38,684 bases of DNA from Candidatus Rokuibacteriota bacterium (GTDB lineage Bacteria > Methylomirabilota > Methylomirabilia > Rokubacteriales > CSP1-6), in the NCBI GenBank assembly GCA_016184305.1, contig JACPCX010000121.1, positions 1 through 38,684 on the forward strand, in the 5' to 3' direction. How positions within the stretch are numbered: position 1 is the stretch's first letter; every line of letters starts with the position of its first letter. Of this stretch, positions 15,852-22,656 are shown piece after piece. The position numbers and the translations under genes were made by a program. The notes below the pieces were generated by a model. That model had not been told where the DNA came from. It made no database searches and saw only the letters and a program-made list of their open reading frames with translations.

Positions 15852-16580
15852 ATGCACGGCCTGATCTCGCGCTACCGCTGGGCGCTTGTCGTCGGCAGCT
15901 CTGTTCTCTTCACGGCGGCCAGCCTCTGGTTCCTCCTCGCCGACGACCTCGCGGGCTACCACTTCCTGCTCCGCCTCTACCAGGACAAGCACTTCCTCAA
16001 GCGGACGCTCCGGGAGTGGGGAATCCTGGCGCCCGTGATCTTCATGATCATCCAGGCGCTGCAGGTGATCATCTCTCCCATCCCCGGCGAGGCCACCGGC
16101 TTCCTCGGGGGCTACCTCTTCGGGGTGTGGCTCGGCTTCATCTACTCCACCATCGGGCTGACGGCGGGCTCGGTGGCGGCCTTCGGCGTGGGCCGCTGGC
16201 TCGGCGCGCACTTCGTCCGGAACCTGGTGAGCAAGCAGACCTGGGACCGGCTCGGCTTCATCGTGGAGGCCGAGGGGACGATCCTCTGCTTCATCATCTA
16301 CCTCATTCCCGGCCTGCCGAAGGACATGGTCTCTTACCTCTTCGGGATCAGCCCGATGCCGCTGTGGGTGTTCGCCCTGGTCTCGGGGCTCGGCCGGATG
16401 CCCGGCACCTGGGTCCTGTCGGCCCAGGGCTCCCAGACGGCGGCCGGCCAGTACGTCCGGGTGGTGCTCATCTCCGCCATCGCGGTGGCCGTGGCCCTGC
16501 CCCTCTACTACTACCGCCACCGCATCGTCCGGTGGTTGGAGTCGCGCAACGGTCAGGGGTCGGGCGACGGGGGGGCTTGA
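15852..16580 (+). CDS. TVP38/TMEM64 (DedA/VTT domain) membrane protein
   Basis: QALQVIISPIPGE...GGYLFG...LIPGLPKD...GRMPG, with multiple TM segments. Confidence 0.9.
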   Translation: MHGLISRYRWALVVGSSVLFTAASLWFLLADDLAGYHFLLRLYQDKHFLKRTLREWGILAPVIFMIIQALQVIISPIPGEATGFLGGYLFGVWLGFIYSTIGLTAGSVAAFGVGRWLGAHFVRNLVSKQTWDRLGFIVEAEGTILCFIIYLIPGLPKDMVSYLFGISPMPLWVFALVSGLGRMPGTWVLSAQGSQTAAGQYVRVVLISAIAVAVALPLYYYRHRIVRWLESRNGQGSGDGGA

Positions 16581-16605
16581 CAGGCCCCACGTCGGTTCGT
16601 AGACT
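16577..16605 (+). promoter_or_regulatory. Sigma70 promoter of the DAHP synthase leader
   Basis: TTGACA (16577-82)-17 nt-TAGACT (16600-05). Confidence 0.8.
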
Positions 16606-16636
16606 GGCAGCCACGCTTCACACAGGAGGCAGGCCA

Positions 16637-16726
16637 GTGGCACGGAAGGGGAACGGGATCGCGCAGGGCTGGCGGTTCTACTTTTATTACTTTCCCTCCG
16701 TCCGCCTACTGGCTTCCCTGAGCTAG
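16637..16726 (+). CDS. Attenuator leader peptide MARKGNGIAQGWRFYFYYFPSVRLLASLS
   Basis: AGGAGG at 16624-29 and GTG start. Seven aromatic codons within eight positions (W R F Y F Y Y F). Lies between the promoter and a terminator upstream of DAHP synthase. Confidence 0.85.
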   Translation: MARKGNGIAQGWRFYFYYFPSVRLLASLS

Positions 16727-16781
16727 CACCCAGGAGCCACGGGCGGACGAGCCGCCGGCCCGTGGCGATCGAGATCGAGCC

Positions 16782-16818
16782 AACGCCGCGGGCAACACAC
16801 CCGCGGCGTTTTTCTTTT
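16782..16818 (+). terminator. Intrinsic terminator of the attenuator
   Basis: AACGCCGCGGG-CAACACA-CCCGCGGCGTT followed by TTTCTTTT. Confidence 0.88.
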
Positions 16819-16883
16819 CCACGGGCCGAGGGCGGCGGCCGGGGATGACAACCGGATAGGCATAGGTCAAAGAAAGGCACAGC

Positions 16884-17900
16884 ATGATCATCATCATGAA
16901 ACCGGGATCGACCGAGGCGGATAGCGACGACGTCTGTCGCCGGGTGGCAGACTTCGGGTTCAGGACCCATCTCTCCCGGGGCGAGGTGCGGACCATCATC
17001 GGCGTGGTGGGCGACGATCGCGCGAAGGAACAGCTCCTCGCGCTGCAGTCGCTGGACGCCGTCGAAGGCGTGGTCCGGATCCTCCAGCCCTTCAAGCTCG
17101 CGAGCCGCGAGGCGCATCCCGAGAGCACCCAGTTCAAGATCCGCGACGTGCCGGTCGGCGGCAAGCAGATCGTCGTCATGGCGGGCCCCTGCGCCGTGGA
17201 GTCCCGGCCGCAGCTCCTGGCGGTGGCCGAGGGGGTCAAGGCGTGCGGGGCCCACATCCTCCGCGGCGGGGCCTTCAAGCCGCGCACCTCGCCGTACGCC
17301 TTCCAGGGCCTCGAGGAGGAGGGGCTCGCGCTGTTGTCCGAGGCGAGCCGCAAGACGGGGCTGCCGGTCGTGACGGAGGTGATGGAGCCCGACAAGGTGG
17401 AGGTGGTCGCCGCGCACGCCGACGTGCTGCAGATCGGCGCGCGCAACGTCCAGAACTTCTCGCTCCTCAAGCGCGTGGCCGAGTGCGGCAAGCCCGTGCT
17501 CCTCAAGCGCGGCATGTCCACCTCCATCCAGGAGTGGCTCCTCTCCGCCGAGTACGTGCTGGCGGGGGGCAACCCCAACGTGATCCTCTGCGAGCGGGGC
17601 ATCCGCACCTTCGAGACTGCGACGCGTTACACCCTCGACCTGAACGCCATCCCTGTCGTCAAGCAGCTCTCTCACCTGCCGGTGTTCGTGGACCCGAGCC
17701 ACGGGACGGGGCACTGGGAGTACGTGGCCGCCATGGCCCGGGCGGGGCTCGCCGCTGGCGCCGACGGGCTCATCATCGAGGTGCACAACAAGCCGGAGGA
17801 GGCGCTCTCGGACGGGCCGCAGTCCCTCAAGCCCGACCGCTTCGCTGCGCTCATGCGCGAGCTTCGCCCCCTGGCCGAAGTGCTTGAGCGAAGCCTGTAG
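16884..17900 (+). CDS. aroF: DAHP synthase type I-beta with N-terminal ACT-like regulatory domain (paralog 1)
   Basis: [46 protein letters not shown] and DPSHGTG. Confidence 0.95.
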
Positions 17901-18004
17901 TGACGACGGCGGAGATCGGGCGAATGAAGACGGGGAGCGCGAACATCCGTCGGGGATGGGCGGGCGACAGCCCGGGCGCCCGTGCCAGGTGAAGGAGAGT
18001 CTCT

Positions 18005-19021
18005 ATGATCATCGTGTTGAAATCGGGAGTCTCCGAGGCGGATGTCCAGCACGTGTGCGAGCGCGTGGTCGAGCTCGGCTACCAGCCCCACACCATCCGC
18101 GGCGAGTTCAAGACCATCGTCGCCGCGGTGGGGGAGGAGCGTGGCAAGCCCGATCTCCGGCTGCTCGAAGCGCTGGAGACGGTGGAAGCCGTCATGCCGG
18201 TGCAGCAGCCGTTCAAGCTCGCGAGCCGGGAGATCAGGCCGGAGCCGACCGAGGTGCCCGTCAACGGCGTCAGCGTGGGCGGCCAGCGCGTGATCGTGAT
18301 GGCGGGGCCCTGCTCGGTGGAGTCGGAGCCGCAGATCCTCGAGGTGGCCGAGGCCGTCAAGCAGGCCGGCGCCAGCATCCTCCGGGGCGGCGCCTACAAG
18401 CCCCGCAGCTCGCCCTACGCCTTCCAGGGGCTGAAGGAGCAGGGGCTCAGGTACCTCAAGGAGGCGAAGACGCGCACGGGGCTCCCCGTCGTCACCGAGG
18501 TGCTGGAGACGGAGAGCGTGGAGCTCGTGGCGGAGTACGCCGACATCCTGCAGATCGGCGCGCGCAACATCCAGAACTTCACCCTCCTGCGGCGCGTGGG
18601 AGAGATGGGCAAGCCCGTGCTCCTCAAGCGCGGCATGGCGACGAGCATCCAGGAGTTCCTGCTCTCGGCCGAGTACATCCTGTCGGCCGGCAACCCCAAC
18701 GTGATCCTCTGCGAGCGGGGCATCCGCACGTTCGAGACCGCGACGCGCTTCACCCTCGATCTCAACGCCGTGCCGGTGCTCAAGAAGCTCTCCCACCTGC
18801 CGGTGGTCGTGGACCCGTCCCATGGCACGGGCCACTGGGACCTGGTGGCGCCCATGGCGAAGGGGGCGGTGGCCTGTGGGGCCGACGGGCTCATCATCGA
18901 GGTACACCCGCGACCGGAGGAGGCGCTGTCGGACGGTCCGCAGTCCCTCAAGCCGTCCAAGTTCGCCCAGCTCATGCGTGAACTGCGCCCGGTGGCGGAG
19001 GCCGTCGGCCGAACCCTGTAG
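18005..19021 (+). CDS. aroF: DAHP synthase type I-beta (paralog 2)
   Basis: Same motifs ([30 protein letters not shown]) and same 338-aa length. AAGGAG RBS. Confidence 0.95.
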
Positions 19022-19210
19022 CAGGCTGCTGACAAAGGCCCATCTGCGGAGGCGCGGCGCCCTCGGCCGCAACCTCGACGTGGCTCGCCCACGCCCGCCC
19101 GGATCTCCGGATCCGCTCGCCTCGCCTCCGGCTCGGCTCGCCAAGCGGAGTACGCCTCGGTTGCGGCCGTCGGGCGCCGCCTCGCATCTGGACCTTCTTG
19201 ATCAGCATGC
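19021..19210. mobile_element. MITE/REP-like element A with imperfect terminal inverted repeats
   Basis: GCAGGCTGCTGACAAAGGCCCATCTGC ... GCATCTGGACCTTCTTGATCAGCATGC, with inner IR GGCGCCCTCGGCCGCAACC / GGTTGCGGCCGTCGGGCGCC. Confidence 0.7.
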
Positions 19211-19240
19211 GCGTCTTCCAGCGGCCTGCCGGGCCGTGGT

Positions 19241-19436
19241 GGGTCGTGGGTCAATTCGGCCCTCGGTACTGGGGCAAGTTGCGAGCCAGACGAGGCACGA
19301 GGGAGCCAGCGACACGAGGCGTACTCCCTGTACGTTGAGCGTCGCTGGCGACCGAGTAACGAAGTATGGCGAAGTACGTTGAGCGTCGCTGGCGACCGAG
19401 TAACGAAGTATGGCGAAGCGAATTGACCCAGGACCC
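19241..19436. mobile_element. MITE-like element B with 18-bp TIRs and internal 44-bp tandem duplication
   Basis: GGGTCGTGGGTCAATTCG (19241-58) / CGAATTGACCCAGGACCC (19419-36) match at 17 of 18 positions. 19331-19374 is identical to 19375-19418. Confidence 0.7.
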
Positions 19437-19488
19437 CGTGGTGGGGGGAGTCGGGTCCTGGGGGCGGGCCGTGGCATAATCGCTGTGT

Positions 19489-20478
19489 ATGAAGATCTGG
19501 CTGCCGGCGGATCCCTCGCGGCGGGCCTTGCTCGTCGCGATCGTGTGCTCGGTGCTCCTCCACGGGCTGGTGGCCGCCTCGGTGTACCTGGCAGGCGCCT
19601 TCGCGCCCAAGATCGTCGCCAAGCGCGGTGAGCCGCTCTTCGTCGACATCACCCCCGACCGGCCCGAGGAGCGTGCGCCGCGCGGCAACCCCGCGCGTCC
19701 GCCCGGTCCGGGAACGCCCGCGCCCGAGCGCCGCGCTCCCGAGCCTCCGGCTCCCAAGATGGCGGAAGTGAAACCCAAGGCCGCCGAGGTTCCCAGGAGC
19801 GCTCCACCCAAGGCGCCGGCCCCGTCACAGGTAGCGAAGGCCTCCCCGCCCCCCGCGCCAGAGACTCCGGAGCCGCGCACCCAGGAGCCGGCGCCCGCTC
19901 CCGGGCCTCAGGCCCGCGCTCCCGAGCGCGAGACTGTCCCCTCCCAGCCTCAGCCCGCCGAGCCGTCCAGGACCGAGGGTGCCGCCAGCCCTTCGCGCCC
20001 CGCGGCACCGTCGGAGCCGGCGGGGCAAGTGCTCGCGCGGACCAAGTCGGGGCTCGACCTGCCGGCCGCCATGCTGAGAAGTCCCGGGGGGGGCGGAGGG
20101 CTCAAGGACGGACGCGGTGGCGTCGAGGGCGAGCCCATTCCGCTGGACACCCAGGAACCGAAGTACGTCGACTACTTCGGCCAGCTTCGCGAGCGGATCA
20201 AGTCCAAGTGGAGCTACCCGCGCGAGGCGGGCGAGCGCGGCATCGGCGGGCAGCTCCTCATCGAGTTCCACATCGCCAAGGACGGGCGCGTGCAGCTCCT
20301 GGAGCTCCGGCGCTCCTCAGGGGTGGAGATCCTCGACGACTACGCGATGAACGCGGTCCGCCTGGCCCAGCCCTTCCCGCCCGTGCCCGACAACCTCGCC
20401 AAGCAGGTCCTCGCCGTCAACGGCCTCTTCAACTACCAGATCGTCGGCAATAGCTTCGTCAATCAGTTCCTCCGGTAG
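19489..20478 (+). CDS. tonB: TonB-family energy transducer
   Basis: N-terminal TM with SVLLH, Pro-rich spacer and C-terminal domain KWSYPREA...[26 protein letters not shown]. Confidence 0.85.
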
Positions 20479-20603
20479 TCTGCGGGGCTCCCGGTGCGCC
20501 TCTCCCCCCTCCGGATAAAGGAGTTCGGGCTTCCCGTGAGCCCCGAGGAGGGCCCCGGGCCGATCGACACGGTCCTGGAGGCACCCGGCCGCGGGCGCTT
20601 CCC

Positions 20604-20633
20604 TTGACAGGCGCGTCGCGTATCCTGTAGGAT
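20604..20633 (+). promoter_or_regulatory. Sigma70 promoter of tRNA-Val/thrS
   Basis: TTGACA-18 nt-TAGGAT. Confidence 0.7.
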
Positions 20634-20658
20634 GTTCAGTGTTTTTTCCAGGGGAGGC

Positions 20659-20733
20659 AGGCTCGTAGCTCAGTGGGAGAGCGCTTGCTTGACACGCAAG
20701 AGGTCGGCGGTTCGAAACCGCCCGAGCCTACCA
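20659..20733 (+). tRNA. tRNA-Val(GAC)
   Basis: Acceptor stem AGGCTCG/CGAGCCT, anticodon arm CTTGC-TTGACAC-GCAAG, T arm GGCGG-TTCGAAA-CCGCC, encoded CCA. Confidence 0.97.
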
Positions 20734-20800
20734 TCCGATCTCGTTGACCGAGGGGTGCCCATCGCGAGGCAGCAGCGGGTGCACGACTAGGGCAGTCGAG

Positions 20801-20835
20801 AGCATCACCGGGCGCCGTCCGTGTGGTGTTTTTTT
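20801..20835 (+). terminator. Terminator-like hairpin + T7 between tRNA-Val and thrS
   Basis: AGCATCAC-CGGGC-GCC-GTCCG-T-GTGGTGTT, running into a T7 tract. Confidence 0.55.
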
Positions 20836-20859
20836 GTCTCTGCACCACGAAAGGACCTG

Positions 20860-22656
20860 ATGGCTGAGCAGGAAGAAGACCGACATCTGAAGTTCGCCGG
20901 GGAGCTCGACTGCGTCCCGGAGCCCCTGCCGACCCTTCGCCACTCCACCTCGCACGTGATGGCCCAGGCGGTGAAGCAGCTCTTTCCCGAGGTGCGCGTC
21001 GCCATCGGCCCGGCCATCGAGGACGGCTTCTACTACGACTTCCGCAGGGCCACGCCCTTCACCCCCGAGGACCTCGCGCGCATCGAGGCGCGGATGCGGG
21101 AGCTCGTCAAGGCGGACCTGCCCTTCGTCAGGGAGGAGTGGGCACGCGCGGAGGCCATCCGCCACTTCAAGGAACAGGACGAGCCGTTCAAGGTGGAGAT
21201 CCTCGAGGGGCTCGACGTGCCTGCGGTGTCCGTGTACCGCCAGGGCGACTTCCTCGACCTTTGCCGCGGTCCCCACGTGCGCTCCACCCGGGGCATCAAG
21301 GCCTTCAAGCTCCTCTCCTCCTCGGGCGCCTACTGGCGCGGCGACGAGCGGAACCCGATGCTCCAGCGGATCTACGGGACCGCCTGGCTCACGCAGGAGG
21401 ATCTGGACAAGTACCTGTGGCGCCTCGAGGAGGCGAAGAAGCGCGACCACCGCAAGCTCGGGCGGGAGCTCGACCTCTTCGACTTCCACGACGTCGCCCC
21501 CGGGGCGCCCTTCTGGCTGCCCAACGGGATGATCCTCGTCCGCGAGCTGGAGAAGTTCGCGCGCGAGCACCTCGATGCCCGGGGCTACCAGGAGATCTCC
21601 ACGCCGCTGCTCATCCACAAGCGGCTCTGGGAGGAGTCGGGGCACTGGGAGCACTACAGCGAGCACATGTTCAAGGTGGAGGTGGAAGAGGAGATCTTCA
21701 CGCTGAAGCCGATGAACTGTCCGCCGTCGACCTTCGTCTACCGGCGGGCGCTGCGCTCCTACCGGGATCTGCCGTTGCGCTTCTCCGAGATGGGGCGCTG
21801 CCACCGCAACGAGCGCTCGGGCACGCTGACCGGTCTTGTCCGCGTCCGCCAGTTCACGCAGGACGATGCCCACATCTACTGCCGGCCGGATCAGCTCCAG
21901 GCCGAGATCGTCGGGATCCTCGATCTGGTCCGGGAGTGGTACAAGACCTTCAAGCTCCAGCCGACCTTCAAGCTCTCCACACGGCCCGAGAAGAAGCTCG
22001 GGGCCGAGGAGCAGTGGGACGCGGCCGAGCACGCGCTCGCCGAGGCGCTCAAGGTCAATGGGCTCGCCTACGACCTGAACCCGGGTGACGGCGCCTTCTA
22101 CGGGCCCAAGGTCGACATCTACGTCGAGGACGTCCTGGGGCGGAGCTGGCAGATCGCCACGGTCCAGGTGGACCTCGTCATGCTGCCGGAGCGCTTCAAG
22201 CTCGAGTACATCGACAGTGACGGCCAGCCGAAGCGACCGGTGGCCATCCACCGGGCGATCTTCGGGTCCTACGAGCGGTTCATCGGCATCCTGACGGAGC
22301 ACTTCGCCGGGGCGTTCCCCACGTGGCTCGCGCCCGTCCAGGCCCGCGTCCTGCCCGTGAGCGAGAAGCACCTCGAGTACGCACGCGTCGTCTTCGCCCG
22401 ACTGCGAGAAGCGCGGATCCGGGCGGAGCTGGACGACCGGAACGAGAAGCTGGGGTACCGGATCCGCGAGGCCCAGGTGCGAAAGGTTCCCTACATGCTC
22501 GTCGTGGGGGAGCGCGAAGCGCAGAACGGCACGGCGAGCGTGCGCCGGCGCACCGGCGAGGACGCCGGGGCCCTGCCCGTGGAGCGCATCGTGTCGGACC
22601 TCGCGGCCGAGATCGGCAGTCGTTCCGCCACCCTCACCGTGGGGCGATCGGCCTGA
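20860..22656 (+). CDS. thrS: Threonine--tRNA ligase (no N-terminal TGS domain)
   Basis: LRHSTSHVMAQAV, DLCRGPH, RDHRKLG, LKPMNCP, RVRQFTQDDAH and AFYGPK. Confidence 0.97.
   Translation: MAEQEEDRHLKFAGELDCVPEPLPTLRHSTSHVMAQAVKQLFPEVRVAIGPAIEDGFYYDFRRATPFTPEDLARIEARMRELVKADLPFVREEWARAEAIRHFKEQDEPFKVEILEGLDVPAVSVYRQGDFLDLCRGPHVRSTRGIKAFKLLSSSGAYWRGDERNPMLQRIYGTAWLTQEDLDKYLWRLEEAKKRDHRKLGRELDLFDFHDVAPGAPFWLPNGMILVRELEKFAREHLDARGYQEISTPLLIHKRLWEESGHWEHYSEHMFKVEVEEEIFTLKPMNCPPSTFVYRRALRSYRDLPLRFSEMGRCHRNERSGTLTGLVRVRQFTQDDAHIYCRPDQLQAEIVGILDLVREWYKTFKLQPTFKLSTRPEKKLGAEEQWDAAEHALAEALKVNGLAYDLNPGDGAFYGPKVDIYVEDVLGRSWQIATVQVDLVMLPERFKLEYIDSDGQPKRPVAIHRAIFGSYERFIGILTEHFAGAFPTWLAPVQARVLPVSEKHLEYARVVFARLREARIRAELDDRNEKLGYRIREAQVRKVPYMLVVGEREAQNGTASVRRRTGEDAGALPVERIVSDLAAEIGSRSATLTVGRSA

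Follow-up and report, generated by a model that had tools for sequence, protein, structure and literature searches.

Among described leaders, those closest to the one analysed here are the aroR–aroF attenuator, said to have been described by Neshat et al. in 2014, and the his leader, in which helix C:D joins A:B and E:F in the state that holds these two. Two reports describe, for Corynebacterium glutamicum, a leader peptide with Phe and Tyr codons before the DAHP synthase gene, stalling on which raises transcription (PMC11802643, PMC4046766); the response reported there is to Phe and not to Tyr, the Tyr codon having given no Tyr response (PMC11802643). For the Salmonella his leader, with segments A–F, the source sets A:B and E:F against B:C and D:E and gives termination as the untranslated default (PMC4046918). 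The third point of comparison is the 1-2-3-4 scheme of E. coli trpL and pheL (PMC4615214, PMC3082878). Both a DAHP synthase attenuator (aroR) and six segments (his) are already known (PMC4046766, PMC11802643).

We analysed a window of 38,684 nucleotides from a Candidatus Rokuibacteriota bacterium (phylum Methylomirabilota), which carries a comparable leader (Table 1). The promoter, Shine-Dalgarno (SD) sequence, 29-codon upstream open reading frame (uORF), helices and terminator that an earlier note had read from the DNA all lie where it placed them, ahead of two DAHP synthases; it had missed an upstream segment, 16631–16653, that pairs with segment A (hereafter segment 0). The resemblance to aroR is functional, a leader peptide with Phe and Tyr codons ahead of a DAHP synthase. 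Unlike aroR, with its three control codons (FYF), the window leader has seven, belongs to a different phylum, and combines an intrinsic terminator and an optional Trp codon with a DAHP synthase bearing a ferredoxin-like regulatory domain. With the Salmonella and E. coli his leader it shares a six-segment chain and seven control codons and, in folding models of the window, a predicted default of termination when untranslated; its control codons, however, are mixed aromatic rather than His, and its last two hairpins are near-repeats, either of which can carry the U-tract. The logic is that of trpL and pheL, and segments 0, A, B and C of relatives with a single terminator map directly onto segments 1–4. 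Here the loop separating segments 0 and A carries the control codons, which in trpL and pheL are part of segment 1; the target is the entry enzyme of the common pathway, and the window form has two extra segments.

The attenuation mechanism is classical, working like trpL, pheL and hisL. All the hallmarks of the class that sequence can test are present: a short ORF with a run of codons for the pathway product, an intrinsic terminator, cognate genes downstream and, in computed folds, a mutually exclusive antiterminator chosen by ribosome position. Taken as a whole, the locus is very likely best explained by a ribosome-mediated attenuator that controls both DAHP synthase genes. Leader translation, termination in vivo, the amino acids sensed, the kinetics and the direction of evolution are what we infer from these data. 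By sequence comparison, what appears new is the set of one-terminator, two-terminator and relay forms, the likeness of D:E to B:C, and the swapping of sensing codons across two phyla.

Table 1. The leader, its segments, the genes behind it and their neighbours, in window coordinates
Feature	Positions	Strand	Remarks
VTT-domain membrane protein	15852–16580		stop codon overlaps the −35 box
Sigma-70-type promoter, TTGACA-17-TAGACT	16577–16605	+	matching promoter pattern in 81/89 related leaders
−35 TTGACA; −10 TAGACT	16577–16582; 16600–16605	+	17-nt spacer
Shine-Dalgarno AGGAGG of leader ORF	16624–16629	+	
Leader-peptide ORF	16637–16726	+	GTG start, TAG stop, 29 codons
Control codons W R F Y F Y Y F	16670–16693	+	last one ends 6 nt before A core
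Segment 0	16631–16653	+	start codon and first codons; pairs with 16691–16715 if leader untranslated; candidate protector or pause hairpin (folding model)
Segment A	16699–16720	+	within leader ORF; partner B when ribosome stalled on control codons
Segment B	16731–16749	+	partner A or C
Segment C	16758–16767	+	B:C without U-tract here; C:D antiterminator
Segment D	16782–16793	+	near-repeat of B core
Segment E and U-tract	16800–16818	+	E 16800–16810; D:E intrinsic terminator
DAHP synthase copy 1	16884–17900	+	338 aa; PRK08673 subfamily; N-terminal ferredoxin-like domain
DAHP synthase copy 2	18005–19021	+	338 aa; 67% identical to copy 1; no own leader
TonB C-terminal-domain protein	19489–20478		
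tRNA gene	20659–20730		
Threonyl-tRNA synthetase	20821–22656		

Promoter-like sites number 2 in 5 kb, against 0.2 in shuffled sequence, and transcription would start near 16611–16612. The window helices comprise 18 bp (A:B), nine pairs of nine (B:C), 10 bp (C:D) and 11 bp plus the U-tract (D:E), with isolated energies of −29.8, −23.3, −22.4 and −22.2 kcal/mol, respectively. The leader fold is not a product of chance, because its z-score is −5.7 and none of 200 shuffles folded as low. Across the 3.2 Mb of the genome, this site alone came up in a scan for short ORFs that are led by an SD sequence and combined with a run of regulatory codons and a terminator; a terminator scan on its own fell short of significance, with one terminator found where 1.6 were expected. 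Searched at E ≤ 5, window positions 16400–21000 matched no Rfam riboswitch, T-box or leader family (Trp_leader, Phe_leader and His_leader among them), and seven related loci likewise matched none at E ≤ 1. The literature searched, mostly open-access main texts, yielded no account of this leader family, of a ppdK leader or of a single uORF in control of two linked terminators. A comparative attenuation survey by Lopatovskaya et al. (2010) reportedly covered delta-proteobacteria and may have predicted some members.

To follow the switch, we folded growing transcripts under a mask reaching 7, 9 or 12 nt beyond the first base of the A site. At the 7- and 9-nt offsets, A:B and then C:D form while the A site holds any codon of the control run (Trp 16670 to Phe 16691), and an A site at Pro 16694 or later gives B:C and D:E. 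The 12-nt mask moves the flip one codon earlier; otherwise it coincides with the end of the control run. This constrained folding, which the earlier note had proposed as a check, places the change of state at the last Phe codon. The note's two states, A:B with C:D when stalled and B:C with D:E after translation to the stop, are borne out by these folds, by 89 relatives and by covariation.

In the complete transcript at equilibrium, D:E is preferred even in the stalled state (C:D 4–10%), and with a ribosome at the stop codon C:D is transiently favoured over B:C. The switch must therefore depend on folding order, that is, on kinetic control. Findpath estimates put the barriers between alternative folds at 12–20 kcal/mol, which in such models is consistent with the first-formed helix winning. 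In the mechanism we propose, RNA polymerase would start near 16612 with a ribosome trailing on the 29-codon leader. Scarcity of Phe- or Tyr-tRNA, and probably also of Trp-tRNA, would stall the ribosome at 16670–16693, where it would cover segment 0 and leave A free to form A:B; C would then pair with D, D:E would be blocked and transcription would go on. A ribosome beyond the last Phe codon would cover A, so that B:C would form first, D would stay free and D:E with its U-tract would terminate transcription. In an untranslated leader, segment 0 would capture A and termination would again follow.

Conservation was assessed at 95 loci that lie ahead of DAHP synthase genes of the class, from which 89 leaders were parsed, one genome giving two; five parses were corrected by hand (L018, L029, L065, L073 and L086). 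Of the six unparsed loci, two lie at contig ends (L019, L089), two are copies that follow an unrelated gene (L081, L085), and the others are L087 and L095. Since relatives are not independent samples, the counts overstate significance. The short ORF is conserved in 89 of the 95 loci tried, and in 69 of 89 relatives a gap of 6 nt separates the end of its last control codon from the A core. The A core itself is read in three ORF frames (69, 14 and 6 leaders), so what is kept is the RNA and its position, not the peptide.

Helix pairing follows the same pattern. Among the window-type leaders (64 of 65), pairing in the terminator state reaches 98.5%, and double-change cells number 54 where shuffles give 15.3 (0/500); for the antiterminator state the corresponding values are 89.9%, 45 and 28.1. 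The C:D core shows almost no double changes, its columns being nearly invariant. In the outer A:B helix, compared across families in 60 of the 89 leaders, six of nine pairs show double changes (0/500 shuffles). The uORF conservation and helix covariation that the earlier note wanted examined upstream of DAHP synthases were thus both found, with A:B, B:C and D:E covarying. In footprint folding, B:C forms in 88 of 89 relatives with the ribosome at the stop; with the ribosome on the last control codon it is blocked in 69 and still forms in 20. A covariance model of the leader matches 137 of 151 genomes of the phylum, training genomes included; seven of ten f6 genomes have no model match. In 45 of 89 leaders (for example, L008–L018), the uORF has an ATG ≤8 nt from the inferred start and no SD sequence, a near-leaderless arrangement.

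These data bear on two other readings of the locus. The upstream VTT-domain gene shares the strand and has its end at 16580, and the hairpin could be no more than its terminator, or else part of an RNA switch that binds a ligand or a protein. The ORF would then be a by-product of a pyrimidine tract; U-rich tracts do yield chance Phe codons (TTT, 137 in frame and 105 out). Against a by-product, the remaining Phe and Tyr codons keep to the frame (TTC 158 in and 11 out, TAC 119 and 3, TAT 32 and 2). The upstream gene varies by lineage while promoter, ORF and helices persist, the codon-to-helix spacing is fixed, paralogs with Leu/Ile/Val codons precede an ilv–leu operon, and Rfam searches of the window region and of seven related loci gave no riboswitch or T-box match, all of which makes this reading extremely improbable. 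Hardly more credible is a TnaC-like arrest, in which stalling would result from free aromatic amino acid bound by the leader peptide inside the ribosome tunnel, not from codons short of charged tRNA. Peptide motifs (GWR and YF-x-x-VCP) do recur in many leaders, but a conserved peptide up to an arrest site, the mark of TnaC-type leaders, was not found: downstream of the control codons three reading frames are used, and the N-terminus is constrained in neither length nor sequence. Arrest caused by the product would, moreover, induce at plenty, the wrong sign for a biosynthetic gene, and the scaffold accepts Leu/Ile/Val codons.

Phe codons occur in 89 of 89 leaders, Tyr in 85 and Trp in 45, and TGG is found 53 times in frame against 19 in the two other frames together. 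Sensing of Phe and Tyr, as the earlier note had it, is highly probable; its claim that Trp is sensed together with them is only partly supported, Trp being optional and represented by a single codon in the window. Three of the four genomes from one genus (L004, L059 and L060, compared with L062) lack an in-frame 24-nt block that carries the Trp codon and lies between short direct repeats. We lean slightly towards Trp being sensed as well, although one Trp codon among eight would be expected to give a weaker signal. The fraction of regulatory codons is stressed as important in an earlier study (PMC1183508).

The earlier note had counted five segments and expected read-through from an untranslated leader. 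In the window, folding without a ribosome does not bear this out: 16631–16653, including the start codon, pairs with 16691–16715 over 22 bp before B is made (fold energy of 16637–16710, −28.5 kcal/mol). A barrier of 16 kcal/mol (findpath estimate) separates 0:A from A:B, the combination 0:A, B:C and D:E lies 7 kcal/mol below A:B and C:D, and C:D reaches ≤0.3 expected pairs at every untranslated transcript length tested. In these folds segment 0 sequesters A, and C:D never forms in the untranslated window transcript. A five-segment switch, with A:B as first helix, read-through when untranslated and Trp, Phe and Tyr sensed alike, is accordingly unlikely here. At equilibrium A:B does slightly beat 0:A once B is complete (−54.1 versus −52.6), and B:C is absent from the untranslated fold in 38 of 89 relatives, many of them with short 5′ UTRs and weak segment 0. 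However, in the window 0:A forms before B and is held by the barrier, and equal sensing sits poorly with 44 of 89 leaders that lack Trp, including all 12 in family f4. On the folding models, the window leader is a six-segment, his-like chain for which termination when untranslated is the probable outcome.

Across the family this property varies. The his-type first helix appears by folding in the window and in SD-led relatives and is variable over the family as a whole, and B:C forms in the untranslated fold of 51 of 89 relatives, a mixed outcome. Segment 0 is 87.7% paired in 19 hand-picked SD-led relatives, with a covariation score matched by 3 of 500 shuffles; in 13 f3/f4 leaders it is conserved and 86.5% paired, but its covariation is not significant. 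Taken individually, segment 0 beats shuffles (p ≤ 0.05) in 20 of 89 leaders, the window (z 0.3) not among them.

The 89 leaders fall into three architectures. In type I (17 leaders; families f3, f4, f11 and f13), B:C is followed by a U-tract and nothing more. Type II (7 leaders; f6, f7, f8, f9, f10 and f12) has B:C with a U-tract followed by D:E with a U-tract, and C can invade the second hairpin; a truncated f2 locus looks like type II. Type III, the window form (65 leaders; f1, f5 and one f7), has B:C without a U-tract and then D:E with one. All three share their output, read-through when A:B is intact. Because B:C is itself the U-tract terminator in 17 relatives, the same stalled and translated logic must hold there, and type I leaders serve as a natural experiment that directly tests the B:C step of the earlier note. 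Its overall claim, ribosome-mediated transcription attenuation of DAHP synthase, is upheld by these relatives together with the footprint scan, the 89 leaders and covariation.

Segment D resembles B and E resembles C, the cores being exact repeats in Leu/Ile/Val paralogs, so that by sequence D:E appears to repeat B:C. In a quickly built tree of 102 DAHP synthase proteins (midpoint-rooted, key branches under 95), the architectures are interleaved, with type II and type III as sisters in f7 and type II together with type I in f2–f4. Type II occurs in all main branches and is therefore the simplest ancestor on this quick, midpoint-rooted tree. It seems reasonably likely that the long chain derives from two linked terminators, B:C with its U-tract and the repeat D:E with its own, of which the first lost its U-tract and is now a relay. 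More than one termination-related element per leader is also described for the Gammaproteobacteria rimP leader (PMC2965389) and Salmonella mgtCBR (PMC3641672); unlike these, a single uORF here would drive both terminators through the C:D link, and the hairpins are sequence repeats.

In Methylomirabilota, the distance from uORF stop to B is 8–18 nt in type III (median 11) versus 18–28 nt in type I (medians 21–24 with a B:C U-tract), and 12–14 nt in the Leu/Ile/Val paralogs. Ribosomes near a terminator repress that terminator, according to one study, and the Methylomirabilota distances fit such repression (PMC4824070). A rule of short distance whenever B:C lacks a U-tract was rejected: it fails in a second phylum (14, 19, 23 and 24) and so is not general.

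Weaker second matches of the covariance model proved to be paralogs. Those of family f1 have the same A-B-C-D-E chain with Leu/Ile/Val codons; a strict pattern occurs in 42 of 139 f1 genomes, one match being a DAHP leader, and in none of 81 genomes outside f1; its reversed control matches nothing. The pyruvate phosphate dikinase (PPDK) gene ppdK comes next in 28 of 30 loci fetched, and ilvB, ilvC, leuA and leuB were confirmed downstream of it in one locus, three more showing the same order by eye. The gene string behind this leader in f1 reads ppdK–ilvB–ilvH–ilvC–psd–pssA–leuA–leuB (ilvH, psd and pssA by eye). These loci (L263–L268, L270–L274 and L324–L353; for example, L284:545–11840) have a near-leaderless uORF. 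The window genome has the ppdK–ilv–leu operon, and no Leu/Ile/Val leader was found before it.

One f7 genome, in addition to the leader ahead of its DAHP synthase, has one on the same scaffold with the codons FWYYYY (L269:400–1354); the genes behind this second leader, for ADH synthase and dehydroquinate synthase II, form a non-homologous entry to the aromatic pathway. The covariance model also matches 62 of 151 genomes of a second phylum, judged from the name Desulfarculaceae to be Desulfobacterota. Among its top 30 loci there, 29 have a downstream ORF: 13 DAHP synthases, 11 DeoC-fold aldolases resembling ADH synthase, 2 periplasmic binding proteins, and 1 each of shikimate kinase, aminotransferase and another ORF. 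Copies before periplasmic binding proteins, aminotransferase, shikimate kinase and the other ORF are L302, L311, L321, L316 and L313; for the periplasmic binding proteins, aromatic amino-acid transport is a possible role. With L308 dropped for typing, its automatic frame choice having failed, the other 29 of these 30 loci comprise 8 of type I, 17 of type II and 4 of type III. The last control codon lies 6 nt from the A core in 21 of 29, and B:C forms even when stalled in 11 of 29.

In these sequences, leader codons track the downstream pathway: aromatic codons before DAHP- or ADH-type synthase and shikimate kinase, Leu/Ile/Val codons before ppdK. We tentatively suggest, with somewhat less than even confidence, a portable chassis common to Methylomirabilota and Desulfobacterota, in which codon cassettes are swapped, Trp forms an in-frame module, hairpin duplication lengthened the cascade so that one stalled ribosome disables two terminators, the relay form arose more than once, and the window leader reads all three aromatic amino acids. 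A pattern scan of all species genomes returned 116 stretches, many by chance, and was too strict for mapping the limits of the leader family.

The findings extend leader-peptide attenuation to Methylomirabilota, where our literature search found no report, and attenuation there implies coupled transcription and translation. The natural series of one terminator, two linked terminators and relay plus terminator offers a model for interconversion of four- and six-segment leaders and for the effect of extra segments on dynamic range. The Leu/Ile/Val paralog before ppdK–ilv–leu suggests joint regulation of branched-chain synthesis and the PPDK reaction that supplies pyruvate, and cultured Desulfobacterota should make the leader family testable. 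In the window genome, trpE, trpC and pheA lie inside housekeeping gene strings, and inspection by eye revealed no leader upstream of them or of ppdK; the DAHP leader may be the main transcriptional feedback point of the pathway there.

Some loci appear to hold decayed forms. L087:1640–1850 has a promoter followed by one terminator hairpin and no uORF, which could also reflect assembly collapse; L095 has degenerate control codons; and L262, before an unrelated ORF, has Cys/Val in place of Tyr/Phe. In L081 and L085 (f6), no leader precedes the best DAHP synthase copy, which lies behind a gene that by eye resembles ATP synthase epsilon. Weak DNA matches in L046, L048, L049, L052 and L053 were rejected as chance matches or an unrelated terminator; in one of these relatives (L048:1400–1750), a hairpin resembling a terminator lies in the 5′ leader of a gene that by eye is cold-shock-like.

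Members of the protein cluster of DAHP synthase copy 1 are mostly named Ca. Rokubacteria. In seven f1 genomes (L036, L037, L090–L092, L110 and L111), the leader lies directly before the paralog that corresponds to the window's leaderless copy 2, which suggests loss or gain of copy 1. The spacer between the synthases (17900–18004) contains GC-rich hairpins (−41 kcal/mol over 90 nt) without a U-tract, and its length in relatives ranges from 0 to about 250 nt. After copy 2, a direct repeat of roughly 45 nt lies at 19330–19420 within a long GC-rich intergenic stretch.
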